In this document: positions 39,057-51,214 of the stretch, piece by piece
Position numbering within the stretch: position 1 is the stretch's first letter
Layout of the letters: each line of letters starts with the position of its first letter
NCBI GenBank assembly: GCA_035537955.1
Contig: DATLLF010000097.1
Span: forward strand, 13,184-77,183
Direction: 5' to 3'
Length of the DNA stretch: 64,000 bases
Source of the DNA: Vicinamibacterales bacterium
Lineage (GTDB): Bacteria > Acidobacteriota > Vicinamibacteria > Vicinamibacterales > 2-12-FULL-66-21
Position numbers and translations under genes: made by a program
Notes under the pieces: model-generated
Databases searched by the model: none
Told to the model about the DNA's origin: nothing
The model's input: only the letters and a program-made list of their open reading frames with translations

Positions 39057-41927
39057 ATGCGACGCGTACTCGCCGCCGCCGCATCCGCGGCTGCGATCGT
39101 CACGGTCGGTCTCACCCTGCTCGCACAATCGTCGCTGCAGCACGGCGTACAGGATCCCGCGTGGGCAACGACAGGCAAGCAGCTCGCCTTCTCTTTCTTC
39201 GATCGCATCTGGATTTCCGGAACCGACGGCCGGGGCGGCCGCCAACTGCGCCCGCAATCATCGTCGGTGGAGCGTGATCCGTCGTGGTCGGCCGACGGTC
39301 GATCGATCGCGTTTGCCGCCGATGAGGGGCAGGGATTCGATCTGTTCGTCGCGAGCGCCGACGGGAAGAACGTGCGTCGACTGACCGAGACGAGCGGCGA
39401 CGAACGGTGGCCGTCCTGGACGACCGATGGCCGGATCGTTTTCAGCCGTCGAGCGAGCGCGTTCGATCCCTGGCAGATGCACGTGATCTCCGCCACCGGC
39501 GGTGAGGCCAGCGCACTCTTTCCCGATGCGTCCTCCGACAGCGAGCGCGAACCGCGCGTGTCGCCCGACGGCAAGCGCGTCGCTTACATTTCGGACCGCG
39601 ACAGCACCGACGGTGATGTCGATCTGTGGGTCGCGGAGTTGCCCGGTGGCGACGCGCGGCGCAGGCAGCGTTCTCGCCTGACGCGCGTTCGTGGAACCGA
39701 GGGATATCCCGCGTGGGCGCCAGACGGGACGCGCATCGCGTATTACGCCCAACGTGAAGGCGCGGGATCCGTATGGGTGACCCCGGTGAACGCATCGCAG
39801 GGTTCCGGGCCCGCAGCCGCTCCCGACCTTCGACCGGCCGAACAGCCGGTGCTCGTGTCACGCCGCGGTGGTGCTCCCGCGTGGTCGCCTGATGGAAGAC
39901 GCATTGCCATCGCCGAGCTGCCGCCCGCCGAGCCCTCGTACAACGGCAACCCGCTCCGCAATCCCGACGATCCGCCGCCGGCGTTCGCACCGGAAGGCTT
40001 CAGCCTGTGGCTCGTCGATGCGCCGACGCCAGTCGATTCGGGCGCGCGGCCGCTGAACCCCGGTTCGATTTCGTCCGCGCAGCTGACCGCCGCATTCGAC
40101 CGGGTGTGGGAAACACTCCGCCGCCTCTATTACTCGACCGGATCGTCGGCTGACGAATGGCGTGCGCTGAAGGAGAAGTACCGCCCGCAGGCGGCCGCCG
40201 CGCATGACGATGCATCCCTCGAGAGCGTTGTCGACCGGATGGTGGCCGAGCAGCCGCTGATCAAGACTCCCGTTTCCTCGAGGCGCGCCGTCGTCGTTTC
40301 CGGGAATCCGCTTGCATCGCAAGCGGGGCTGCTGGCGCTCGAAAAAGGCGGTAACGTCGTCGACGCGGCGATCGCGGTGTCCTTCGCGCTCGGCGTGGTC
40401 GAACCGGACGCATCGGGCGTCGGCGGCGACGGAATGGCGCTCGTGTATCTGAAGGGGATGAGCGAGCCGGTCGCGATCGACTACAAGGACCAGACGCCGA
40501 TTCACGCGACGAGCGACAACCCAGTCCTGCGCGCGTCGACCGGCGACGGGCCGGCCGCCGCGAACATTCCCGGCGTCGTTGCCGGTCTCGACGAGTTGTA
40601 CCGCCGGTACGGCAGCAAGAAGGTGGAGTGGGCCGATTTGATCGCCCCCGCGATCGAGCATGCCGAGAAGGGATTCGTGCTCGACGAGGCGCTGCCGACG
40701 TCGGTTGCCGAAGGACGTCGCTTCTTCGACAAGTATCCGGCTGCGAAGAAGATCTACCTGCCCGACGGGAAATTGCCAAAGCCCGGTGACCGGTTCGTGA
40801 ACAAGGACTACGCTGCTACGCTGCGGGCGATCGCGCAGGGTGGCGCGCAGGCGTTCTACCGGGGCGAGATCGCGCGGCGGATCGCCGCGGACATGGCGCG
40901 CAACGGCGGTTTGATCACCGTCGACGATCTCGCGCAGTACCGCGCCATCGAGCGGCGTCCTCTCGCGGGGCGCTACCGCGAGCACGCGATTTATTCCGCG
41001 CCACCGCCGGTTTCAACCGGTCTGCAATTGATCGAAACGCTGCAGATCCTGGAGAATCTTCCCTCGGCGCGTTTTTCCTCGACTCGCTCCGCCCGCTCGG
41101 GACAGGCGCTCTATGCGAGCGACGCGGATTACTTCCACTACGTCATCGAAGCGTGGAAGGTGCGCGACCAGTCGGCGCGCATTGCGGATCCCGCGTTGTG
41201 GAATGTCGATCTCGGGCCGCACCTGGATCCGGTCCATGCCGCGACGTTGTTCAAGCGCATCGACCCGCAAAAAGCATCCCGCTACGGCGGTGGCCCTCAG
41301 GAGTCCACCGACAGACCCGAACGCATCGGCCGCGGCACCACCGCATTTGCCGTCGCCGACAGCGAAGGCAACATGATCGCGGTGACGCAGACGCTGAGCA
41401 CGTGGGGCGGAACGTTCTACGTATCCGACGGCCTCGGCTTCCTCTATAACAATCACCTGCGTTTCGGTGGCGGCGGCGCGCCGGGACGATTCCTCCCGCT
41501 CGCACGGTCGTCCAGCACCAGCGTCCCGACGCTGGTCTTCAAAAAGGACGCCGCCGCCGCCGGCCCCGGCGCGCCACTGCTCGCCGTCGCCGCTGCCGGG
41601 AATGCATGGATACCGGCGTCGGTCTACGACGTGATCCTCAACGTGGTGGACGGAGGGATGAGCGCGCAGCAGGCGATCGAAGCTCCGCGCTTCCTCGTGG
41701 GAAGAGATCCGCTGGAGAACGCCGTCGGACGGATGCAGATCGAGGATCGCTTCCCCCGCGAGATCCTGCAGGATCTGATGAATCGAGGGCATCGCTTCAC
41801 CAAGATCGGCCGCAAGGGCGAAGTGCGCTACGGCTACGCCGCGGCGGTCGTCATCGATGCGACGAAAGGGGAAGTGCAGGGAGGCGCAGAGCCGCGCAGG
41901 TCACACGGGGCTGCGGGGCTCCGCTGA
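39057..41927 (+). CDS. fusion of TolB-like PD40 beta-propeller repeats with gamma-glutamyltranspeptidase
   Basis: Signal peptide, then five PD40-like units (PSWSADGRSIAF, PSWTTDGRIVF, VSPDGKRVAY, PAWAPDGTRIAY, PAWSPDGRRIAI). GGT region has SGNPLASQAGL and the nucleophile block GTTAFAVAD. Confidence 0.85.
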   Translation: MRRVLAAAASAAAIVTVGLTLLAQSSLQHGVQDPAWATTGKQLAFSFFDRIWISGTDGRGGRQLRPQSSSVERDPSWSADGRSIAFAADEGQGFDLFVASADGKNVRRLTETSGDERWPSWTTDGRIVFSRRASAFDPWQMHVISATGGEASALFPDASSDSEREPRVSPDGKRVAYISDRDSTDGDVDLWVAELPGGDARRRQRSRLTRVRGTEGYPAWAPDGTRIAYYAQREGAGSVWVTPVNASQGSGPAAAPDLRPAEQPVLVSRRGGAPAWSPDGRRIAIAELPPAEPSYNGNPLRNPDDPPPAFAPEGFSLWLVDAPTPVDSGARPLNPGSISSAQLTAAFDRVWETLRRLYYSTGSSADEWRALKEKYRPQAAAAHDDASLESVVDRMVAEQPLIKTPVSSRRAVVVSGNPLASQAGLLALEKGGNVVDAAIAVSFALGVVEPDASGVGGDGMALVYLKGMSEPVAIDYKDQTPIHATSDNPVLRASTGDGPAAANIPGVVAGLDELYRRYGSKKVEWADLIAPAIEHAEKGFVLDEALPTSVAEGRRFFDKYPAAKKIYLPDGKLPKPGDRFVNKDYAATLRAIAQGGAQAFYRGEIARRIAADMARNGGLITVDDLAQYRAIERRPLAGRYREHAIYSAPPPVSTGLQLIETLQILENLPSARFSSTRSARSGQALYASDADYFHYVIEAWKVRDQSARIADPALWNVDLGPHLDPVHAATLFKRIDPQKASRYGGGPQESTDRPERIGRGTTAFAVADSEGNMIAVTQTLSTWGGTFYVSDGLGFLYNNHLRFGGGGAPGRFLPLARSSSTSVPTLVFKKDAAAAGPGAPLLAVAAAGNAWIPASVYDVILNVVDGGMSAQQAIEAPRFLVGRDPLENAVGRMQIEDRFPREILQDLMNRGHRFTKIGRKGEVRYGYAAAVVIDATKGEVQGGAEPRRSHGAAGLR

Positions 41928-42031
41928 CAACTCCAAGCTTCACACGTCAAAAACTCCAAACTCAAAATCCTGGCAAGCGGTTGTCTGCCGTTTCCTCTTT
42001 TTGTTTTTGCAGTTTGGAGCAAGAAGTTGTC
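41926..42031. repeat. low-GC heptad-repeat hairpin element, copy D
   Basis: GACAACTCCAAG...AAACTCCAAACTC pairs imperfectly with GCAGTTTGGAGCAAGAAGTTGTC. Its loop shares CTGGCAAGC with copy A. It lies between convergent stops at 41925-41927 and 42036-42038. Confidence 0.7.
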
Positions 42032-42035
42032 AGGT

Positions 42036-45000
42036 TCAGGCGACCACCGGAATACTGGTCGTCGAACTTTCGTAGAGTCCGGCCTGGCCGGGCGCTTCCA
42101 TGATCCCGGCGAACACCTGTTTCAGCATTTCCGGCCGATCGCCGAGCATCTCGAAGAGATCGTCGCGATCGATGAACAGCGCGAGGCCGGCGCGGGTGAC
42201 ACGGGCGTTCTGTCCGATGCGCGGTCCCGCGAGCGCCGCGAACGACCCGATGGCGTCGCCTCCGCGCGCCACCGCGGCGGGGTGAGTGTCGTTCGCCTCG
42301 AGTTCCACTTCGCCTGAGAGGACCAGCCACGTGCCGGGCTCATCGGACGCCTGGAACAGCTGCGTGCCCCCTGTCATCTCCACTGCGCGCGTGATGCTCG
42401 CCAGCTGCTGCGTCTCCTCCGCCGAGAGGTTGCGGAAGATCGGCACGTGCTGGAGGGCGATGACCTTTTCGACCGGTGTCAAACCACCCGCGCCGAGCTG
42501 CTCGAACTCGCGCGCCGCGCCGGTCGGGAAGACCTGCGCCACACCCGCCTTCTGCGCCCGGATCGCCATCGTCGCGAAGAGGCCGCGCACCAGCTCCGTG
42601 CTGTAGGCGAGCTGCGTCCGCAGTTCTTCGGCGGTGAGTGCGAGCGTCACCGCAATGCCCGACGTCTTCACGGTCTTGCGCATCGGCCTGGACTGCAGCG
42701 CTTCCATGAAGCCCAGTGACGACGGGGCGGTCAACGTCTCCGGCGGCCGACGCTCGCTCGTGACGATGACCTCGCCATCGAGCAGCACGTGGATCATCTC
42801 CGGCGCGGAGCGTTCCAGGAGGAGGATCGTGCCCGGCTCGTGGCGTATCTGCCGTGAGGCGCCCGCGATCCTGAAGAGCTCGTCGACGGTGACCGACGAG
42901 AAGAGGGGGAGCGCGCGCAGTTCCGACGCGAGCACCGCCGCCGGAAGCGGCTCCAGCCACAGCTCTCGTCTGCGCTCGGCGGGCATGCGCTGCTCGGCGA
43001 GCGCCCATGATGCCGCTTCGAACACGAACCAGTCGCTCACGTCGCGGTGCGCGAGCACGTGCTCGATGTCGGGCGCGAGCGTCCACATCTTGCGCTGCCG
43101 TACGACGTCGATGGCGCAGGCCGAGACGACCTGGTCGTCGTCGTTGATCAACTGCAGCAGCGTTTCCTCCACATCGCGCGGACGGGTGCGGATAAGCACG
43201 TTGCCGCGGCGCACCTTTTCTTCGACCGGCATGTCCTCGAGCACCGGCATCACCATCTTGCGGATGTTGCCGGTCAGCAGGTTGTCGAGGTACTCGGACG
43301 CGCTTGCGCGGTTGCGCGCGTCGCCCTGGGCGAGCGTCCACTGGGCCGCCGCGATGTCGTTGGGCGGATAGATGAGCGCGAGCAGCCGGTAGATCCGATC
43401 TCCCGCCCGCTCCATCTTCTGGCGCAGTGCCGTCGCCAGCAGCGACGCATTGTCCAGTTCGCCGCGTCCGGTCAGGTTGTGCCGCAGCGACAGATACGTG
43501 AAGTAGTGCCGCGCCTCGCGCGTGATCGACGCTTCGATCTTCTCGGGCGGGAACTTGAGGCGCTCGTCCGCTCGCCGGACCCGGCCGAGTGCCGACACCA
43601 CTTTGTAGCGCAGGAACCCGTCAGGGTCGTCGATTCGAGCGAGCAGCGCGTCGGCCGCCTTCTGCGACGGGATCATTGCAATCGTGCTCGGCACGTGGCG
43701 GCGGATCCAGATGTCCTCCTGCTCGTCCGCCATGAAGTAGGCAAGCGGATCGATGACCGCCTCGCCATAGCTGACGAGCACGTCACGCGCACGCCCTTTC
43801 AGATGACGGTTGCGCAGCAGGCTGACCAGCACCGGCACGAACATGAAATCCGCGGTGCCGCTCTTGCGCACGCTTTCCATCGCCTCATCGGCGACATCGC
43901 CGTAGGGATCGTGCAGCAGGGGAATGAGCAGCCGCTGGAAGCGCGCCTCTTTCACCTGGCCGAGTGCGGCCGCGACTTCGCGGCGTGCCGACCGTGTGTC
44001 TTCGTCGGTGCCCGACACGATGTCGCCGAGTGTCGCCTCCGCGGCGTTCAGATCTGCAAGATTCTGGCTGGCGGCCAGCGCAACCGCGGCCGTGGCGCGA
44101 ATGCGCGGATCGGCGTCCGCGAGCATGGGTCGCGCGAGCGTCGACGCATCTTCTCCCGCGATCGCGCCGAGCGCCCTGAGCGCGGCGGCGCGGACGCCGG
44201 GATGCGGATCACCCACGGCGCGCCGCACCTGTGCCACCCATTGACTGGCGAAGTCGCTCTTCGTCTCGCCGATCGCGCGAAGCGCGCGCTCGCGCACCGG
44301 CGCCGACTCGTGGTAGAGCAGCAGCGGTGTCACGAGGTTGCTCTTGTCGAGCGACGTGAGCATGTCGATGGCGTAGAGCACGCGCGCCGGCTGTGGATGC
44401 GACAGCTCCTGGACCAGCGTCTCGATGGTCGAGAGATCGCCGCCGCTCAGCCGGACCTCCGCGGGCTCGACGGCCCGCGATTCGAGGCTGCGACGGAACG
44501 ACAGGAGGTACTCGCGCTTCGCGCGCACCGCCATGAAGTACCAGACCACCGTGAGCACCAGGCTGACGAAGCTCAGTTGATACCACTGGAGCGCCAGGCC
44601 CCACGGCTGAATCAGCACGAGCATCAGCAGTGCGCCGAGCCCTCGCGACAGCCGATCGACCGTCACGTCAACGAACGGCTTCACCTCCTGCCGCAGCGCT
44701 GTCGGCAGCGGGAGGAACAGCACTTCGCGCGTCGTCTTGTCGACCGTGTAGCGGAGCGAGCGGTCGAGCACGCTGGCCGCCGCGGGAGCCCAGAGCGCGG
44801 CGTTCAGCAGAATGATCACAGCGGTGGCGCCGAGGTTCGTCGGCAGCATCAGCAGCGCGAAGCCGATGCCGAGGTACTTGTGGATCCTCGGCGTGATCCA
44901 GACCTGGATGACGAACGCGGCTACCGATAGATAGAAGCGGACCTGCGCCAGGAAGGCGCTGATCGAGTCCGTCTCTCCGCGCCCCTTGAACACCTCGGCC

Positions 45001-45764
45001 GCCATGTTGAGCTGCTGATCGATCAGCGCCGCGCCGAGCGAACCGAACGCGATCACGACGGCGATGAGCTGAATCTGCTTCGATTCTCGCAGCAGCCCGA
45101 ACGCGCGTGACAGGCTGACGCCACGCTCCTCGTCAGGAACCGCCGCCGCCGCGGCCGCATCCTGCTCGCGCTTGACGATGATCACGACGATGCCCGCGCA
45201 GGCGAGAAGCAGGGCGGAGCTGCACAGCAGCAGCGTGTTTACACCGATCCGCTCGACCAGCGTGGCGGTCAGCCCCGCGCCGGTCATTCCGCCGAGGGCG
45301 ACGCCGCCGCCGATGAAGCCGAACATCCGTTTGGCCTGACGCGGGTCGTACACGCCGTTGGCGAGTGTCCAGAACTGGCTGATGAGCAACGCGCCGAGCA
45401 ACAAGCCCCAGAGATAGAAGGCGACCGACACCCACTCGCCGCCACCCTGGAAGAGGACCCAGAACCCGAGCATGATGACAGCCATGCCGGCTTGCGTGAT
45501 CGGCAGCGCCCAGCGGCGAGGCAGCGCGCTGACGATGCGCGTGTAGGCGAGCATCAGAAAGCCGATGATGAGTCCGGAACCGAAGATGACCCATGGCACG
45601 TTCACCGCTCCCAGGCTGGCGATCAGCTTCGATCGCGTGAGCGGTTGAATGATGTTGTACGCGGTCATACAGAGGAACGCGTAGACGAACATCAGCGTGA
45701 TGCCCGTCGCTTCCTCTTTACGCACCTCCACCATGGGGGAGAGCAAGCGCTGCAGCAGGGACAT
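42036..45764 (-). CDS. TLC/Npt-type transporter homologue fused to HEAT repeats and two cyclic-nucleotide-binding-like domains
   Basis: TM domain has LWGLLLGALLISQFWTLAN...QAKRMFGFIG and YTVDKTTREVLFLPLP. HEAT units include DPHPGVRAAALRALG and DADPRIRATAAVAL. CNB-like modules begin LRALPLFSSVTVDELF and LQHVPIFRNLSAEETQ. I prefer ATG 45764 over GTG 45770. Confidence 0.8.
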   Translation of the reverse strand: MSLLQRLLSPMVEVRKEEATGITLMFVYAFLCMTAYNIIQPLTRSKLIASLGAVNVPWVIFGSGLIIGFLMLAYTRIVSALPRRWALPITQAGMAVIMLGFWVLFQGGGEWVSVAFYLWGLLLGALLISQFWTLANGVYDPRQAKRMFGFIGGGVALGGMTGAGLTATLVERIGVNTLLLCSSALLLACAGIVVIIVKREQDAAAAAAVPDEERGVSLSRAFGLLRESKQIQLIAVVIAFGSLGAALIDQQLNMAAEVFKGRGETDSISAFLAQVRFYLSVAAFVIQVWITPRIHKYLGIGFALLMLPTNLGATAVIILLNAALWAPAAASVLDRSLRYTVDKTTREVLFLPLPTALRQEVKPFVDVTVDRLSRGLGALLMLVLIQPWGLALQWYQLSFVSLVLTVVWYFMAVRAKREYLLSFRRSLESRAVEPAEVRLSGGDLSTIETLVQELSHPQPARVLYAIDMLTSLDKSNLVTPLLLYHESAPVRERALRAIGETKSDFASQWVAQVRRAVGDPHPGVRAAALRALGAIAGEDASTLARPMLADADPRIRATAAVALAASQNLADLNAAEATLGDIVSGTDEDTRSARREVAAALGQVKEARFQRLLIPLLHDPYGDVADEAMESVRKSGTADFMFVPVLVSLLRNRHLKGRARDVLVSYGEAVIDPLAYFMADEQEDIWIRRHVPSTIAMIPSQKAADALLARIDDPDGFLRYKVVSALGRVRRADERLKFPPEKIEASITREARHYFTYLSLRHNLTGRGELDNASLLATALRQKMERAGDRIYRLLALIYPPNDIAAAQWTLAQGDARNRASASEYLDNLLTGNIRKMVMPVLEDMPVEEKVRRGNVLIRTRPRDVEETLLQLINDDDQVVSACAIDVVRQRKMWTLAPDIEHVLAHRDVSDWFVFEAASWALAEQRMPAERRRELWLEPLPAAVLASELRALPLFSSVTVDELFRIAGASRQIRHEPGTILLLERSAPEMIHVLLDGEVIVTSERRPPETLTAPSSLGFMEALQSRPMRKTVKTSGIAVTLALTAEELRTQLAYSTELVRGLFATMAIRAQKAGVAQVFPTGAAREFEQLGAGGLTPVEKVIALQHVPIFRNLSAEETQQLASITRAVEMTGGTQLFQASDEPGTWLVLSGEVELEANDTHPAAVARGGDAIGSFAALAGPRIGQNARVTRAGLALFIDRDDLFEMLGDRPEMLKQVFAGIMEAPGQAGLYESSTTSIPVVA

Positions 45765-45770
45765 GGGCAC

Positions 45771-45776
45771 AGCCTA
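45771..45776 (-). promoter_or_regulatory. -10-like TAGGCT, 6 nt upstream of ATG 45764
   Basis: The minus strand reads TAGGCT GTGCCC ATG. No Shine-Dalgarno sequence. Confidence 0.3.
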
Positions 45777-45813
45777 AGCCATCGCGTGACCTGAAGTAAA
45801 CTCACGTCTGTCC

Positions 45814-48366
45814 ATGTTTCTTCGGCTTCGGCGGTTCTTCGACGTCCGGGCGGGCGAAGGGCTGCCGGTGCTCCTTTCCTTCCTGTACGTCGCGTGCGTC
45901 GTCGCGGCCTTCCTGCTCGCAAAACCCATAAGGAACGGGTTGTTCCTGCGCGAATATGGCGCGTCCAAGCTGGTTTACGCCTACGTGGCCGTGCCGCTGG
46001 CGCTCTGGGCGTTCGTGCGCGTTTATACGGCGGTTGCCGCCCGCGTCGGGATGCGGCTTGCCGCCATCGGTACGCTGACGTTCTTCAGCCTGAACGCGGT
46101 GGGGTTCTGGGCGGCGTTTCGCTGGGCGCCGTTCGACCTGCTTCCCGGCCTCTTCTATATCTGGGTGAACTGCTTCGGGGTGATCGCCCCGGTGCAGGCG
46201 TGGAGCTTCGCCAACCGGCTGTTCGACGTGCGTCAGGCCCGGCGTCTTTTCGGACTGATCGGCGCCGGGGCGTCGTTCGGCGCACTCATGGGCGGGCTGG
46301 GAGCCCGTTACCTCGTGCAGCCCGTGGGTGGCGCCGTCAACCTGCTGCTGGTGCTCGCCGCGCTGATCGCGTCCGCAGCCGTCATCGTCGGAGTCATTTC
46401 GCGCCGACTGCGCAGGACGTCGCCAGTGCCGAAGAGGCGGCAGGAGGCGCTGCCCTTCAACGAGGCGCTCGCCGCGATCGGATCCAATCGTTACCTCCGG
46501 CTCATGACCGCGCTCGTCCTGCTGGTGGCGATCGCGACCCAGTGGACCAACTTCCAGATGAGCATCGTCGCTGACGAACGCTTTGCCGGTGACGCGGACT
46601 CGATCACCCGGTTCTACGGGACGTTCAACTTTCTGACGGGACTGGCCGCATTCGTTCTGCAGCTGTTTCTCACGTCGACGTTGTTGACGCGGTTTGGTGT
46701 TACGGCGGTCGTCATGATTCTGCCCCTCGGCCTGGCGCTCGGAAGCGGGCTGACGTTCCTGTTTCCGGTTTTCACAGCCGTTTTGTTCACGAGCTCTATC
46801 GACTACGGGCTGCGCTTCTCGGTCGACAAGGCGGCGTACGAACTTCTCTACCTGCCGATTCCGCCGCACGAACGGCAGCCGATCAAGAACGCGCTCGACA
46901 TTCTGGGCAGCCGGATCGGTGATGCCGTCGGCGGCGTGCTGCTCGGCCTGGCGACCGGCGGGTTCATCATGCTGCCGGGCGCGGGCCTTGGCATCCGCGG
47001 CACCGCTGCCATCATCTTCGTAATGACGCTCGCCTGGACCGTCGTCGCGTGGCGCCTGCGGCGAGCGTACGTGGTGGCCATTGAGGAGAACATCCACCAG
47101 CACAGGCTCGATACCGAACGTATTTCGGCGGCTCGCCTCGATGCGTCGGTCCGCGACGCCCTGACCGCTCATCTCCGATCCGACGATGCAAACATGGTGG
47201 CCGAAGCGCTCGAGAACATCTCGTTGCTGAAGATGCCTGTACCCAGCAGCGACCTGCACCGGCTGCTCTCGCACACCGACATCCGGGTGCGCGCGCGCGC
47301 GCTTGCGGTTCTCGGCACTTCAGGCGATCGAACCGCCGCGCCGGTTGCCGAGCGACTGCTGCGGGATGCGGACCTGAACGTGAGGACTCAGGCGCTCTTG
47401 TACCTCTCGCGTGCTGGCGGCTTCGATCCTCTGGAACGGATCGCGGAGCTAGGCGACTTCGCGGATTTCTCCATCCGCGCGGCGATGGTCGCCTTTCTGG
47501 CGTCACCGGGACCGGCGCGCAACGAAGAGGCCGCGCGCATTCTGCTCGAGCAGATGGCGGCGTCGGAAGAGCCGCGCGATCGCGCCGAAGCCGCGCGAGT
47601 GCTGGCGATCGTTCCCCATCCGGCGACCGACGTGCTGACGACTCTGATTCTCGACGAGGATCAGGACGTCGCCGAGCAGGCGATGCGGACGGCGCATTCG
47701 GTGGGATCCGGCGATGTGGTCGCCGCGCTGGGAGCGGCCCTTGTGTCGCGGCTCTTCGAGGCTGGCGCGCCGCTGCGGCGGCGCCTGATCAGGACGCTCA
47801 ACAAGATCAAGCAGAATCACCCGAACATGGAGCTCGATGCGACATTGATCGAGCTGCTTCTCGCCGCGGAGATCTCCGGTCATTACCGCTCGTATCAAGT
47901 GCTGGCGCCGCTCGATGCGTCGCAGCCCCGCCAGCAGAAGATCATCGCCGCTGTGCGGCATTCGATGGAGCAGGAACTGGAGCGGATCTTCCGGCTGACG
48001 GCGCTGCTGTCGCCGTCGGCCTCGCTGCACGATGCGTACGTCGGGCTGCGATCGTCGAACTCGCTGGTTCGTGCCAATTCGATCGAGTACCTGGAGAACG
48101 TACTGAAACCTGGATTGCGCGAGGTCCTGCTGCCGCTGATCGACAGTCAGGTCACCGAAGCCGACCGCGCCGCGCTCGCGGAAAAGGTCGTGGGTCCGCC
48201 GCTCGAAAGCTCCGAGCAGGCGATCGGTGTTCTGCTCACAAGCGATGATCCGTGGCTGCGCTCGCGCGCGGAGATCGCCGCGAACCGCGCCGCCGAGGCG
48301 AGTGCGGTGCCGGAGGAGTACACACCCGAGCCGGCGAACATGGACGCGGGCATCGGCGCCGGCTAG
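45814..48366 (+). CDS. TLC/Npt-type transporter homologue fused to HEAT repeats (paralogue of 42036-45764, no CNB domains)
   Basis: TM domain has IWVNCFGVIAPVQAWSFANRLFDVRQARRLFGLIG and RFSVDKAAYELLYLPIP. HEAT-like units include HTDIRVRARALAVLG and DADLNVRTQALLYL. Confidence 0.8.
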   Translation: MFLRLRRFFDVRAGEGLPVLLSFLYVACVVAAFLLAKPIRNGLFLREYGASKLVYAYVAVPLALWAFVRVYTAVAARVGMRLAAIGTLTFFSLNAVGFWAAFRWAPFDLLPGLFYIWVNCFGVIAPVQAWSFANRLFDVRQARRLFGLIGAGASFGALMGGLGARYLVQPVGGAVNLLLVLAALIASAAVIVGVISRRLRRTSPVPKRRQEALPFNEALAAIGSNRYLRLMTALVLLVAIATQWTNFQMSIVADERFAGDADSITRFYGTFNFLTGLAAFVLQLFLTSTLLTRFGVTAVVMILPLGLALGSGLTFLFPVFTAVLFTSSIDYGLRFSVDKAAYELLYLPIPPHERQPIKNALDILGSRIGDAVGGVLLGLATGGFIMLPGAGLGIRGTAAIIFVMTLAWTVVAWRLRRAYVVAIEENIHQHRLDTERISAARLDASVRDALTAHLRSDDANMVAEALENISLLKMPVPSSDLHRLLSHTDIRVRARALAVLGTSGDRTAAPVAERLLRDADLNVRTQALLYLSRAGGFDPLERIAELGDFADFSIRAAMVAFLASPGPARNEEAARILLEQMAASEEPRDRAEAARVLAIVPHPATDVLTTLILDEDQDVAEQAMRTAHSVGSGDVVAALGAALVSRLFEAGAPLRRRLIRTLNKIKQNHPNMELDATLIELLLAAEISGHYRSYQVLAPLDASQPRQQKIIAAVRHSMEQELERIFRLTALLSPSASLHDAYVGLRSSNSLVRANSIEYLENVLKPGLREVLLPLIDSQVTEADRAALAEKVVGPPLESSEQAIGVLLTSDDPWLRSRAEIAANRAAEASAVPEEYTPEPANMDAGIGAG

Positions 48367-49136
48367 GCCGGCGGCATCGGAGGTAGCGAGCGCTTGTGTT
48401 CGCTTGCGCGGGCGAGCCGCGTGATCGTGTCTGCGATCGGCGCAGCCACGGCTCCGGATCCCCCGTTCAGATACCGCTCGAGATCCGCGTAGGTGAAGCC
48501 CATCTCTCCTTCGTCGGTCTGTCCGGCCCAGAGGCCGGCGGACGGCGGTTTCTCGATAATCGGCTCGGGAACGCCGAGCTCGCGTGCGAGTGCGCGGACC
48601 TCGCTCTTCACCAGCCGTCCGATCGGCAGCATGTCCACGCCGCCGTCGCCATACTTGGTGAAGTAGCCGATGGAGAGCTCACTGCGATTGCCGGTGCCGG
48701 CCACGAGGTAGTTCAACGTGTTGGCGACGAAGTAGAGGGTCGCCATGCGCAGGCGCGGCTTGACGTTCGCCAACGGCAGCCGCGCGCGCGGATCCACTTC
48801 GTCGGCCGGCGCCACCGGGAATTCGCCGCGCGGCAGCGCCGCAATGGCCGTTAGAAGATCGCCCGTCAACCCGTCGTACGCGCCTGCCAGGTCGATGTGC
48901 AGCGCGTGTACGCCGAAGTGTTCCGCCGCCATTCTTGCGTGCGCCTCGTCGGTCGGATCGCTGTGGCAGGGCATCATCACGCCGACCACCGCTCCCGGCA
49001 GCGCGTGCGCGGCGAGGCCGAGAACGACCGCGGAATCGATCCCGCCGCTCGAGCCGACAACGATTCCGCGCGCTCCTGCATCGGAGACCCTGGCCTTCAT
49101 CCACGCACTGAGGCGTGTACGTGCGTCACTGCTCAT
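48363..49136 (-). CDS. nadE: ammonia-dependent NAD+ synthetase
   Basis: 257 aa with the SGGIDS PP-loop. 4-nt overlap with the upstream response-regulator gene. Confidence 0.9.
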
Positions 49137-50182
49137 GACTGGATCTCAGGCTCGATGATCGTCAGAAAGGCGTCGACCAGCGCGGGATCGAAGTGACGCG
49201 CCCGCTGCCGTTCGATTTCGGCGATCGCTTCCGTGACTGGCCATGCCTCCTTGTACGGACGTTGCTGGGTGAGGGCGTCGAAGACGTCGGCGACCGCCAC
49301 GATCCTGCCCGGGAGCGGAATCGATTCGCGCCGGATCCCCGCATACCCGTTCCCGTCCCAGCGTTCATGGTGGCTGAAGGCGATTTCTTCGGCGAGCCGC
49401 AGGATCGGAAAACGGCTCCCCGACAGAATGCGCGCGCCGATGGTCGTGTGCGTCTTGACGACTTCGAACTCGGCTACGGTGAGCTTCCCGAGCTTGAGCA
49501 GGATCGAGTCCGGCACTCCGATCTTGCCGACGTCGTGCAACGGTGCCGCTCGACGGATCAGCGACACCTGCGCGTCGGGCAAGCCGATCTGCCGCGCGAT
49601 GAGCGCTGCCATCTGCGCGACGCGCTCGGTGTGCTGGCCGGTATTGTCGTCGCGGAACTCGGCCGCCTTTGCCAGCCGCTCGATGATCTCGATCTGCGCC
49701 GCCTCGAGCTCGCGCGTGCGCTCGCGCACCTTCGCATCGAGCATCTGGTTCTGGCTCTGGATCTGCAGATAGAGGAAGCGCGTATCGAGCAGGGTGTTGA
49801 TGCGCAGCAGCACTTCGTCAGGGCTGAACGGCTTGTGCAGAAAGTCCTTGGCGCCGCGCGACAGCGCATCCCGCCGTGCCTCGGGCGACACGTCCCCGGT
49901 CAGGATCAATATCGGCAGGTATGTGGCCTCGGCGATCTGATTGAGCTCCTGCATCACCGCCAGGCCGTCCATGTTCGGCATGTGGAGATCGAGCAGGATC
50001 AGGTCAGGGCGGAACTCCACGTACAGTGTGCGCGCGTCTCGCGGATCGCAGGTCGTTGCGATACGCGTGAACCCGGCGCGCTCGAGCAGCCTGCGCAGGA
50101 CCTGAACGTTCGTGATCTCGTCATCAACGATCAGGATGCGTGCTCGGCTGTGGAATCGCTGCGACATGGGCCTCCAGGGCAT
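49133..50182 (-). CDS. response regulator with HD-GYP-type phosphodiesterase output domain
   Basis: REC domain (ILIVDDE...[13 protein letters not shown]...KPF) followed by HDVGK and [12 protein letters not shown], a GYA variant of GYP. Confidence 0.9.
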
Positions 50183-50191
50183 CGTCGAACG

Positions 50192-51214
50192 TCAGGGACC
50201 GATCGGGTTCGCGTTGGCTATGCTCTCCGCCGCGGGCGAGTCGGGCCACTCGATGGCCGGCGCCGCCGTGTAGTCCGCATGCGCCAGCGCTGACTGGAGC
50301 AGCGACGTCTGCGATGCATAGAACACCAGCTTCAGATAGTGGCGTCCGACGATGTAGGCCTGCCCGAGGAGCAGCACGATCCACATCGTCACGCCGGCAC
50401 CGGGAGCGCCGGGGGAGAGCAGCCCGTAGGCCGCGGCCAGCACGGCGAAGGCGGCTCCGTTCAGAAGGTAGAGTGCGATCACGCGCGCGAAGTGGCGGCG
50501 GAAAAATCCCCAGCTCGCCGCAATCGCTCCGATTGCGCTGCGGCGGTCTTCGACAACGATGCGAAATCGTGCGTAATCGAACACCACATTGAAGAAGATG
50601 AGCACCGCGCCAAAAATAACGTAACCAGCGAGCCGGATGAGCAGGGCTGTTCGTTCTACGGTGAGATCACCGGTCAGGCGGCCAAACAGATCATCGAACA
50701 ACCACGGATGCACCCAGCCGAAGAGAAACGAATACACCAGAAGGGCAACGATCCCGAGCCGCAGAAAGCGCCAGAAGTGAACGCCGGCGGCGGCAAAAAA
50801 ATGATGCGCTCGCGTGCGCCGGCTCCGCGCCAGTCGATCGATCACGCCGCCGCTGAGGAAGGACCAGATCAACAGCCAGCCAGTCGTGACGCCGGCAATG
50901 GTCGTCGCCATCTCTCTGTTGTCGAGTAGCGCATCCAGGTTTCTGAGCACCGCGCCGAAGCCGATGATCGAGGGAACGAACGTCGTGCCGAGACCCGCCG
51001 CCTGAAAGAGGAACTCCTGCCACCATTGATAGTCCGCGCGAGACGCGACCTGTTCGGCGACCAGGCTCGAACCCAGATGCGCTTCGAGCATGGCGCGCAG
51101 CGCGAGTGCCAGCGGCAACGCAAGGAGCAGCGTCAGGATGCACATGCCGGCGAGGAGCACCGGAGCTCCGTTGGTTCGGCGCATGCCCTCGCGGAAGGCC
51201 GTGGTGGCAGTCAT
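50192..51214 (-). CDS. hypothetical polytopic membrane protein
   Basis: 340 aa with about 6-8 hydrophobic segments. One nt separates its ATG from the M1 peptidase stop. Confidence 0.6.
   Translation of the reverse strand: MTATTAFREGMRRTNGAPVLLAGMCILTLLLALPLALALRAMLEAHLGSSLVAEQVASRADYQWWQEFLFQAAGLGTTFVPSIIGFGAVLRNLDALLDNREMATTIAGVTTGWLLIWSFLSGGVIDRLARSRRTRAHHFFAAAGVHFWRFLRLGIVALLVYSFLFGWVHPWLFDDLFGRLTGDLTVERTALLIRLAGYVIFGAVLIFFNVVFDYARFRIVVEDRRSAIGAIAASWGFFRRHFARVIALYLLNGAAFAVLAAAYGLLSPGAPGAGVTMWIVLLLGQAYIVGRHYLKLVFYASQTSLLQSALAHADYTAAPAIEWPDSPAAESIANANPIGP

Follow-up and report, generated by a model that had tools for sequence, protein, structure and literature searches.

The ATP/ADP translocators of Chlamydia, Rickettsia, and plastids belong to the TLC/NTT family of MFS-fold carriers (TCDB 2.A.12), and an NTT carrier is commonly taken as a hallmark of energy parasitism. 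One branch of the family, NTT-HEAT(-cNBD), is widespread and occurs in free-living bacteria, cyanobacteria, Chlamydia trachomatis, and oomycetes. NTT-HEAT and NTT-HEAT-cNBD fusions in free-living bacteria, including forms with a duplicated cNBD, were described in 2017 by Major, Embley and Williams (Genome Biol Evol), who had Acidobacteria among the taxa sampled (PMC5381601). In that study all NTT-HEAT fusions fell into one clade, with every characterized NTT outside it, and the cNBD was proposed to regulate transport (PMC5381601).

Here, we analyzed two divergent genes, P1 and P2, in a 64,000-nucleotide stretch of DNA (the window) from a free-living-type Vicinamibacterales genome (Acidobacteriota) of a soil lineage. 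The domain order is that of the published fusions, namely, an N-terminal NTT/TLC domain (PF03219), HEAT repeats (PF13646 and PF02985), and, in P1, a C-terminal cNBD (PF00027). However, the only duplicated cNBDs that Major et al. report are those of oomycetes and Bacilli, whereas P1, with its duplicated cNBD, is from Acidobacteriota; moreover, they describe same-strand operons of NTT-HEAT and cNBD, while here a cNBD-bearing and a cNBD-less paralog diverge. A search of representative sequences returned a continuous NTT-HEAT/NTT-HEAT-cNBD series of 2416 clusters at an E value of ≤1e-30, and NCBI and JGI already annotate such proteins. Thus, the architecture is not new, and the novelty that an earlier note on this DNA had attached to it was overstated, the fusions having been described in 2017; its statement that no member is characterized stood, and we found no functional characterization of any NTT-HEAT protein in the literature. 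By itself, the locus leaves current knowledge unchanged; it bears out a bioinformatic observation already in print and takes it a little further, adding to it the divergent pairing in most Vicinamibacteria species and a conserved intergenic element.

Divergent pairing and the intergenic element

The features of the locus are listed in Table 1. The ORF list and the translations bear out the divergent genes of 1242 and 850 codons, 49 bp apart (45765 to 45813), that the earlier note had described. The 1242 residues of P1 are counted from an ATG, and its opening residues, MSLLQR, also open its homologs. Hundreds of full-length homologs exist, which rules out chance ORFs in GC-rich DNA, so the features of P1 and P2 are not products of chance. 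The database search listed 120 full-length homologs of P1 with 62 to 98% identity and the same Pfam set, and across these relatives every domain is under purifying selection (55 to 84% identity to the window protein). P2 is 100% identical to the NCBI protein [quoted passage not shown] and aligns with P1 over all 850 residues at 24% identity (E value of 2e-48). No riboswitch or other structured RNA was detected in or around the locus at Rfam gathering thresholds.

Table 1. Positions (in the window) and strands of the features of the P1-P2 locus, with the evidence for each
Feature	Position	Strand	Evidence
P1 gene, NTT(TLC)-HEAT-cNBD-cNBD, 1242 aa	42036..45764	-	ORF and translation; stop codon at 42036-42038
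P1 CNB-like domain B, aa 1100-1225, cassette I-G-S-F-A-A-L...Q-N-A-R-V	42090..42467	-	Best cNMP_binding stretch (aa 1132-1207); beta-barrel model
P1 CNB-like domain A, aa 946-1075, cassette G-F-M-E-A-L...P-M-R-K-T-V-K-T	42540..42929	-	cNMP_binding stretch; beta-barrel model; Foldseek
P1 cytoplasmic stalk and HEAT/helical solenoid, aa 421-945	42930..44504	-	HEAT_2; alphaRep matches; AF2
P1 TLC/NTT 12-TM carrier domain, aa 1-420	44505..45764	-	Pfam PF03219 over aa 37-419; profile matches; hydropathy peaks
Conserved intergenic promoter-like element	45771..45805	- (P1 strand)	Sequence and conservation
P2 gene, NTT(TLC)-HEAT, 850 aa, without cNBD	45814..48366	+	ORF and translation
P2 TLC/NTT 12-TM carrier domain, aa 1-420	45814..47073	+	AF2 model; Foldseek
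P2 stalk and HEAT/helical solenoid, aa 421-827	47074..48294	+	AF2 secondary structure; HEAT_2; alignment to P1

Of 80 species-level Vicinamibacteria loci, 60 have a P2-like gene divergent from and adjacent to P1, most often across a gap of 40 to 50 bp; co-conservation of the pair in most close relatives, on which the earlier note had made its proposal depend, is thereby borne out. Average-linkage clustering separated a second clade that is still paired, in which identity to the window proteins falls to about 50% for P1 and to only about 35% for P2, and several P1-type clades without a paired P2. A scan of metagenome loci seeded with distant members supplied another 18 adjacent pairs, all with at least 47% identity to P1, and 39 distant loci (24 to 30% identity) that were unpaired. 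On these grounds, pairing was rejected as a general property of NTT-HEAT-cNBD proteins; it occurs only in one Vicinamibacteria clade, in which gene order in general is conserved as well.

The syntenic block runs M1 peptidase, 340-aa protein, RR-HD-GYP, nadE, P2, P1, and transketolase-like gene, and in the syntenic loci no partner gene apart from the paralog is consistently co-located. The adjacency of nadE was considered as a clue to an NAD substrate and set aside as a weak hint only, since nadE and P2 are convergent, the distance between them differs from relative to relative, and the block is syntenic as a whole. Because the entire neighborhood is syntenic, adjacency alone could be inherited. 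It is thus quite possible, though we lean the other way, that P1 and P2 are independent and that their head-to-head arrangement reflects inherited Vicinamibacteria synteny and not functional pairing or a heteromer. Consistent with independence, the synteny extends to the flanking genes, pairing is missing from several P1-type clades and from every distant relative, and P2 has been lost without loss of P1 at some loci (L062, L006, L008, and L009), in some relatives, such as L062, with the flanks intact; to our knowledge, characterized NTTs also act as monomers. What tells against it is that the pairing outlasts divergence of P1 and P2 to the low identities of the second clade, that a spacing of 40 to 50 bp is kept in most species, and that the common intergenic block is nearly invariant. 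Such constraint on both spacing and intergenic block points to linked expression.

On the P1 strand, the element reads GAGTTTACTTCAG-N-...-GCTTAGGCT, with TTTACT at 45795 to 45800 and TAGGCT at 45771 to 45776, the latter preceding the P1 ATG by 6 nt. The P2 strand has TAAACT at 45797 to 45802, which precedes the P2 ATG by 11 nt. The window has a single copy of AGTTTACTTCA. The element was found in 46 sequences (the window and 45 relatives' loci), in which GCAGTTTACTTCAG and TAGGCT come close to maximal information content. The distance from TAGGCT to the ATG is 6 to 7 nt in 26 of the 46, and relatives with a longer gap have a GAGG Shine-Dalgarno sequence inserted before the ATG. A scan of the intergenic region with the E. 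coli sigma-70 consensus stayed below threshold, and the promoter reading therefore draws only on conservation and geometry. As far as sequence can tell, this strongly conserved element of ~30 bp, common to the pair, implies leaderless or near-leaderless mRNAs. It may consist of two overlapping promoters placed back to back, from which P1 would be transcribed as a leaderless and P2 as a near-leaderless mRNA, and expression of the sensor-bearing and sensor-less paralogs would thus be linked.

Carrier domains and substrate

The N-terminal domains of P1 and P2, claimed earlier to be TLC and not generic MFS domains, scored 35.0 and 47.2 bits, respectively, with Pfam TLC (PF03219; gathering score, 21), while their MFS_1 scores of 29.4 and 21.7 bits were both under the gathering score of 33.4. 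A profile of 10 diverse TLC domains of the family, including that of P1, retrieved Chlamydia NTT1 (9j3n) with an E value of 2.9e-36 and AtNTT1 (9j3j) with 9.8e-30; the best other MFS protein was MFSD2A (7oix), at 4.8e-4. The AF2 model of P2 (pLDDT mostly 80 to 96) has 12 TM helices, and its top five Foldseek matches in the PDB were AtNTT1 (9j3l, 9j3m, and 9j3j) and C. pneumoniae NTT1 (9j3n and 9j3o), with TM-scores of 0.59 to 0.73. The best match had an E value of 1.7e-10, a TM-score of 0.72, and an rmsd of 3.9 Å, and the first generic MFS protein, NorA, appeared at 1e-5. In P1, hydropathy peaks fit a polytopic domain over aa 1 to 420. The TM part of the P1 model is of low confidence, with uncertain inter-domain geometry (pTM, 0.59), and the assignment of a 12-TM NTT fold to P1 therefore rests on sequence.

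The sequence blocks quoted in the earlier note are present in both proteins, as YLWG...SQFWTLAN...QAKRMFGF and RYTVDKTTREVLFLPLP in P1 and as YIWV...QAWSFAN...QARRLFGL and RFSVDKAAYELLYLPIP in P2. The NTT motifs FW.(F/L)AN...AK/R-R/K-F and (K/R)Y...D..(K/R)E...P(L/I) align between the family and NTT1. Taken together, both N-terminal domains are true TLC/NTT carriers, P1 by sequence and P2 by sequence and model. A generic MFS identity was rejected, as MFS_1 is below gathering and both profile and fold favor NTT1 by many orders of magnitude.

The AtNTT1 and Chlamydia NTT1 structures thus share a homologous 12-TM carrier domain and signature motifs with P1 and P2; however, identity to NTT1/Npt1 is only 15 to 17%, and those carriers have no HEAT or CNB extension and have established substrates of their own. 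With TIGR00769, the model of the classical NTP/NDP exchangers, P1 and P2 scored 38.8 and 52.8 bits, about a tenth of the cutoff of 387.2. By these scores, P1 and P2 appear to be superfamily members outside the classical exchanger subfamily, and, given so wide a margin, a substrate is not transferable to them from Npt1/NTT1. The architecture and regulation could therefore be as proposed while the solute is not a nucleotide but another organic anion, a phosphorylated sugar, or a cofactor precursor, in which case "nucleotide transporter" would be annotation by family name only. The TIGR00769 scores, the low identity to the NTT1 structures, and the position of the characterized NTTs outside the NTT-HEAT clade (PMC5381601) all favor such a solute, as does the lifestyle of the host, a free-living soil bacterium for which energy parasitism is not an obvious necessity. 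We nevertheless consider it rather unlikely, because the most conserved NTT motifs, several charged positions among them (AKR, (K/R)Y..D..(K/R)E, and K...D), are retained and because every substrate known for the wider NTT family is a nucleotide or NAD (PMC5381601).

The CNB tandem of P1

The cNMP_binding model (PF00027; gathering score, 27.5) matched P1 with 37.4 bits at full length and 41.7 bits on the C-terminal fragment, in two stretches. The AF2 model of P1 has two beta-barrel modules, at ~aa 945 to 1075 and 1100 to 1225, so the cNMP-binding-like modules predicted earlier at ~aa 945 to 1070 and ~1100 to 1225 pass the Pfam model and lie where they had been placed. The top Foldseek matches of the soluble part were the tandem CNB-A/B domains of PKG and PKA-R, at E values of about 1e-8, and the C terminus of P1 is accordingly modeled as a PKA-R/PKG-like tandem CNB fold. 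The matches include trypanosome PKA-R (6hyq, 6hyi, 6flo, and 6ftf), deposited as cAMP independent and crystallized with guanosine or inosine. These proteins share the tandem CNB-A/B fold and offer a precedent for CNB domains with a nucleoside as ligand in place of a cyclic nucleotide; unlike P1, they are soluble kinase regulators, and they have ~16 to 17% identity to P1 and different cassette substitutions.

The canonical phosphate-binding cassette is G-E-[LIV]-A-L ... R-[ST]-A, in which the Glu contacts the ribose and the Arg contacts the phosphate. Neither CNB-A nor CNB-B of P1 has the canonical pair of Glu and Arg. Among the 120 listed relatives, Glu1021 of CNB-A is invariant (120/120), the canonical Arg position is Met in 92, and the next position is variable. 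In CNB-B, Ser occupies the Glu position in 109 of the 120; the family consensus for the second half is R-S-A-T-V, with Arg in 72, and the window protein reads Q-N-A-R-V, with Gln for Arg. In the three distant family members with a locatable cassette, Thr, Val, or Ile stands in place of the Glu, and one of the three retains the Arg. The non-canonical cassettes reported earlier for this one protein thus prove to be family-wide.

These substitutions bear on the hypothesis, put forward by Major et al. (PMC5381601), that the tandem is a genuine cAMP/cGMP sensor, which here would tune ATP uptake to the energy state via adenylate cyclase output. The Pfam score above gathering, the fold matches to cAMP- and cGMP-bound PKA-R and PKG, the invariant Glu1021, and the site B family consensus are all in keeping with it; the Met for Arg in site A, the Ser for Glu and Gln for Arg in site B, and the non-canonical cassettes of distant relatives make it improbable in our view. 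Many CAP/CNB-fold domains bind other ligands, the guanosine and inosine of trypanosome PKA-R being an example. A Pycsar-like anti-phage defense function was rejected, as PADLOC gave only weak local similarity of the P1 cNBDs to the PycTIR and Effector models (E values of 1e-5 to 1e-6, with no stretch passing singly) and no match for P2, and no cyclase or effector gene is adjacent.

HEAT solenoids and the proposed mechanism

Both proteins continue from the carrier into a solenoid of ~400 to 500 residues with DP..VRA..A..AL-type repeats. P1 scored 86.7 bits with HEAT_2 and 30.0 bits with HEAT at full length, above gathering, and 80 bits with HEAT_2 over aa 420 to 860, in three stretches; P2 scored 50.0 bits with HEAT_2 at full length and 57 bits over aa 430 to 850 alone. 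P1 also matched PDB entries of alphaRep, a designed HEAT protein, at E values down to 1e-16. Its modeled solenoid is all-helical, within a soluble part of pLDDT 85 to 94. The aa 421 to 827 region of P2 aligns with aa 421 to 850 of P1, and in the P2 model TM12 runs on into the cytoplasm as a single helix of ~60 residues (aa 394 to 454). These scores and AF2 solenoids agree with the HEAT-like arrays ascribed earlier to both proteins.

Across the 120 relatives, aa 851 to 945 form the best-conserved stretch of P1, with a mean identity to the window protein of 0.84, and the TLC domain has 0.74 identity within the family. HEAT repeats are classical protein-protein interaction platforms, and with the soluble part at least as large as the carrier and its aa 851 to 945 conserved best, P1 and P2 might be membrane-anchored sensors or scaffolds ("transceptors") and not net transporters, the NTT domain sensing a solute outside the cell or in the periplasm and the solenoid of HEAT repeats recruiting partner proteins; but this is very unlikely, since the TLC domain is itself highly conserved with its carrier motifs kept and no partner gene other than the paralog is consistently co-located.

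The explanation that we favor, at about even confidence for the whole of it, is that P1 and P2 are anciently diverged paralogs of the NTT-HEAT(-cNBD) branch of TLC/NTT carriers and act as putative co-regulated secondary carriers of nucleotides or related anions, P1 being subject to modulation by a ligand other than cAMP. Both would be inner-membrane secondary carriers, most likely counter-exchangers, with cytoplasmic C-terminal domains. Their substrate would be a nucleotide or a phosphorylated or anionic metabolite close to one, with ATP/ADP, other NTPs, and NAD as examples. By its rigid coupling to TM12, the HEAT solenoid would relay the state of the distal CNB tandem to the carrier and so influence its rocker-switch cycle. 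The CNB domains probably do not bind cAMP or cGMP in the classical manner, and their ligand is more likely to be a nucleoside, a nucleotide, or some other small molecule.

Such coupling may be likened to the cytosolic helical-plus-CNBD modules of SLC9C1 and SOS1, which are among the whole-chain Foldseek matches of the P1 model. Like P1, these are secondary transporters in which the carrier is followed by an extensive helical domain in the cytosol and by a CNBD or CNBD-like module, which in their case controls activity; unlike P1, they have an unrelated carrier fold (NhaA/CPA), no HEAT solenoid, and a single CNBD, and their whole-chain superposition on the P1 model is poor (rmsd of about 40 Å). 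P1 and P2 may form a heteromer via their HEAT domains or be two carriers with complementary specificity. In the most specific version, a P1/P2 HEAT heteromer would be a ligand-gated nucleotide/NAD exchanger, its degenerate CNB tandem sensing a non-cyclic nucleoside or nucleotide and switching both subunits, which we regard as a long shot. A ligand-regulated transporter, possibly working as a paralog pair, stays the best hypothesis for the locus, and a putative one.

The locus is a clean, well-conserved example of the branch from a dominant soil lineage and offers a natural pair of sensor-bearing and sensor-less paralogs under a single compact control region. The pair and its control region are thus a convenient choice for transport assays in which the CNB tandem or the partner is either present or removed. 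If the heteromer reading is true, it would mean regulated uptake or exchange of extracellular nucleotides in an abundant free-living soil lineage of Acidobacteria, and it would give the widespread NTT-HEAT family its first assigned function and its first heteromeric case.

Two NTT-type carriers encoded head to head

The minus-strand gene P1 and the plus-strand gene P2 diverge across a 49-bp gap (45765-45813). Their ORFs and translations bear out the head-to-head pair of 1,242- and 850-residue products claimed in the earlier note, and all of the sequence blocks quoted there were found in the translations. GC content is ~65% across the window, with no compositional break at the P1/P2 locus, and P2 is 100% identical to an NCBI protein labeled 'Npt1/Npt2 family nucleotide transporter [Vicinamibacterales bacterium]'.

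Features of the P1/P2 locus and conservation of P1 segments
Feature	Position	Strand	Description
PD40-GGT fusion	39057-41927	+	956 aa; N-terminal PD40/TolB-like beta-propeller, then full gamma-glutamyltranspeptidase domain
P1 ORF	42036-45764	-	1,242 aa from ATG; homologues likewise start MSLLQR
Promoter-like block	45771-45805	-	~30 bp, noncoding; near-invariant in P1/P2 intergenic regions (window and relatives among related loci L003-L082)
P2 ORF	45814-48366	+	850 aa
nadE and response-regulator HD-GYP-type (HD_5) gene	48363-50182	-	nadE convergent with P2
340-aa ORF	50192-51214	-	conserved in synteny in 41 related loci, 37-74% identity
TLC segment of P1			identity of family to window protein, 0.74
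HEAT segment of P1			identity of family to window protein, 0.61-0.66
aa 851-945 of P1			identity of family to window protein, 0.84
cNBD-A of P1			identity of family to window protein, 0.61
cNBD-B of P1			identity of family to window protein, 0.55

Pfam searches placed TLC above its gathering score of 21 in both proteins (P1, 35.0 bits; P2, 47.2), together with HEAT_2 (86.7 and 50.0, respectively) and, in P1, HEAT (30.0) and cNMP_binding (37.4, split over two stretches); MFS_1 stayed under its gathering score in both. Against TIGR00769, the classical exchanger model, P1 and P2 reached 39 and 53 bits, far under the cutoff of 387, and thus they belong to the family without being Npt1/NTT1 orthologues. 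We combined 10 diverse TLC domains of the P1/P2 family into a profile, which matched Chlamydia pneumoniae NTT1 (9j3n; E, 2.9e-36) and Arabidopsis NTT1 (9j3j; 9.8e-30), the next MFS protein after the NTT1 structures appearing only at 4.8e-4. The AF2 model of P2 (mean pLDDT, 80; transmembrane region mostly 80-96) has 12 transmembrane helices, the last of which runs on into the cytoplasm as a helix of ~60 residues. In a Foldseek search of the PDB with the P2 model, the five NTT1 entries took the first five places (best E, 1.7e-10; TM-score, 0.72; rmsd, 3.9 A), with NorA, SPNS2, VMAT2, and similar carriers ranking below at ~1e-5. Hence, the N-terminal domains are TLC domains, as had been proposed, and a generic MFS identity is ruled out by the subthreshold MFS_1 scores and the NTT1-first ranking of profile and fold matches. 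P1 and P2 are both NTT-type carriers with a HEAT solenoid joined via the extended TM12.

NTT-HEAT and NTT-HEAT-cNBD fusions had already been described by Major, Embley and Williams in 2017 (PMC5381601), who found the NTT-HEAT fusions to be one monophyletic clade, which is widespread among bacteria (cyanobacteria and Chlamydiae among them) and extends to oomycetes, with duplicated cNBDs in oomycetes and Bacilli. According to that survey, none had been characterized; it proposed that the cNBD might link cAMP with ATP uptake (PMC5381601). We found no functional work on NTT-HEAT proteins in the literature searched, including other uses of the term NTT-HEAT. P1 homologues carry the JGI label 'ATP/ADP translocase/HEAT repeat protein/CRP-like cAMP-binding protein'. 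Thus, the domain interpretation of the earlier note stands, whereas the novelty it implied is overstated: the architecture was previously described and annotated, though functionally unexplored. The family is large: when 1.84 billion cluster representatives were scanned in full with HMMER, 13,229 of them matched at E<=1e-3 and 2,416 still did at E<=1e-30, including two-cNBD forms of ~1,240 aa, forms of ~1,080-1,140 aa, and many NTT-HEAT proteins of 900-960 aa. The match of the ~1,080-1,140-aa forms stops after the first cNBD, and these are therefore probably single-cNBD proteins.

A tandem CNB fold with noncanonical cassettes in P1

P1 and P2 align over all of P2 (24% identity; E, 2e-48), and P2 amounts to a P1 that lacks the CNB tandem and the final helical segment. 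In the AF2 model of P1 (aa 43-1242), the soluble part is well predicted (pLDDT, 85-94), while the transmembrane part is poor, probably owing to the truncated TM1 and a shallow alignment. In Foldseek, this model matches PKG and PKA regulatory subunits best among PDB entries, through their tandem CNB-A/B modules, and these matches include trypanosome PKA-R proteins deposited as 'cAMP-independent' and crystallized with guanosine or inosine. SLC9C1 and SOS1, both composed of a transporter, a cytosolic helical domain, and a CNBD, are loose whole-chain matches.

Both phosphate-binding cassettes, site A of cNBD-A and site B of cNBD-B, are noncanonical across 120 P1-family sequences, which extends to the whole family what had been claimed for P1. 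Site A follows the pattern G-F-x-E-A-L-...-P-M-x-x-T-V-R-T, in which Glu is invariant and Met occupies the expected phosphate-binding Arg position in 92 of the 120. Site B starts I-G-S-..., Ser replacing Glu in 109/120; its family consensus retains R-S-A-T-V (Arg in 72/120), and P1 of the window has Q-N-A-R-V. The canonical Gly-Glu is also missing in three distant single-cNBD relatives whose cassette could be located. P1 thus carries a tandem CNB fold with noncanonical cassettes, which makes cAMP or cGMP in the canonical binding mode an unlikely ligand. All P1 domains are under purifying selection (table).

Divergent pairing and a conserved intergenic element

A scan of GTDB species representatives returned 510 relatives, and pairing was counted in the best 80 of these, all Vicinamibacteria or Acidobacteriota; in 73 of these 80 loci, the sequence extended 2.7 kb or more upstream. 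A P2-like gene lies directly upstream on the opposite strand in 60/80, mostly across gaps of 40-50 bp. A Luteitalea sp. MAG (L035) is one of the genomes with the pair. Clustering of the P1-type relatives showed that pairing tracks clades: the main clade (>=55% identical to P1) is nearly always paired, a second paired clade has P1 proteins ~50% identical and partners just 34-37% identical to P2, and several further P1-type clades are unpaired. A metagenome scan seeded with distant members added 18 adjacent divergent pairs, all at least 47% identical to P1. At 24-30% identity, 39 distant metagenome loci were unpaired, bar one with a TLC gene 1.5 kb off, which rules out pairing as a general family property. 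Thus, the co-conservation anticipated for the two genes is found, but it is lineage specific.

P2 is missing from some loci though the flanks are intact, e.g., L062. One Acidobacteriota MAG contig, CAWIAX010000003.1, holds two P1-type genes ~1.9 Mb apart (L066 and L008), one with a divergent P2 partner and the other without, which indicates a duplication of the P1 type in one genome. In the distant metagenome locus L152 (5890-10107), a stand-alone TLC gene (468 aa) lies directly upstream of a TLC-HEAT gene (921 aa) on the same strand; L153, L096, and L143 share this arrangement, and other lineages thus also have NTT paralogues side by side, as tandems on one strand.

Within the gap, 46 sequences (the window and 45 relatives' loci) share the P1-strand consensus GCAGTTTACTTCAG-(nTtcc)-GCAT-ggC-tTAGGCT, in shorter form GCAGTTTACTTCAG...GCAT..C(T/A)TAGGCT, with near-maximal information content at GCAGTTTACTTCAG and TAGGCT. 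The block is near-invariant although the encoded proteins are only 55-70% identical. The spacing between TTTACT and TAGGCT is 17 nt for most relatives and 18 nt for the window, in which the 11-mer AGTTTACTTCA occurs once only. The end of TAGGCT lies 6-7 nt upstream of the P1 ATG in 26/46 sequences; relatives with longer gaps have instead a GAGG Shine-Dalgarno sequence inserted ahead of the ATG. On the P2 strand, TAAACT lies ~11 nt ahead of the P2 ATG. The second paired clade has a longer spacer between two hexamer-like elements, each still beside its own gene, the P1-proximal one being TGT-TAAGCT, an extended -10-like form. No sigma-70 match emerged when the intergenic region was scanned with the E. 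coli consensus. The divergent arrangement of P1 and P2 and their control region are both conserved, and we infer that the block may comprise back-to-back overlapping promoters, from which the P1 mRNA would be leaderless and the P2 mRNA near-leaderless. In many species, CAGTTT is directly repeated at 10-bp spacing in the first half of the block and might there mark the site of a regulator.

Neighboring genes and a proposed mechanism

The wider neighborhood is largely syntenic in relatives too, in the order M1 peptidase, 340-aa protein, response-regulator HD-GYP, nadE, P2, P1, an optional PD40-GGT fusion, and a transketolase-like gene, and P1/P2 adjacency alone could thus be inherited. The PD40-GGT fusion (G_glu_transpept, 375 bits; propeller with Tricorn-like segments) adjoins P1 in just 11 related loci. 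The 108-bp spacer between these convergent genes (41928-42035) is unusually AT-rich for the genome; a hairpin at 41975-41993 with a T-run behind it resembles a terminator, and the spacer also holds a longer inverted repeat, CTCCAAACTCAAAA / TTTTGCAGTTTGGAG. The 340-aa protein had no match in Pfam, NCBIfam, or PADLOC. nadE and the HD-GYP gene, likely encoding a c-di-GMP phosphodiesterase, are syntenic with the pair in ~30 relatives. The nadE product is an NAD+ synthase of 257 aa, and the stop codons of nadE and P2 overlap by 4 nt. Since NAD is cargo of some NTTs (PMC5381601), this adjacency is a weak hint at the P1/P2 substrate.

Since P1 and P2 retain the NTT signature motifs and several charged positions, a nucleotide or a related anion is their most likely substrate. 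From what is known of MFS and NTT proteins, P1 and P2 would be inner-membrane proteins whose N and C termini both face the cytoplasm, and they would transport by a rocker-switch, probably in counter-exchange. If SLC9C1 and SOS1 are a guide, the solenoid and CNB tandem on the cytoplasmic side may modulate the transport cycle according to an intracellular ligand. The two proteins may either assemble into a heteromer or act as separate carriers under common control that differ in specificity or regulation. The new elements here are the clade-specific conserved head-to-head pairing of a sensor-bearing with a sensor-less paralogue and the conserved promoter-like element common to both genes.
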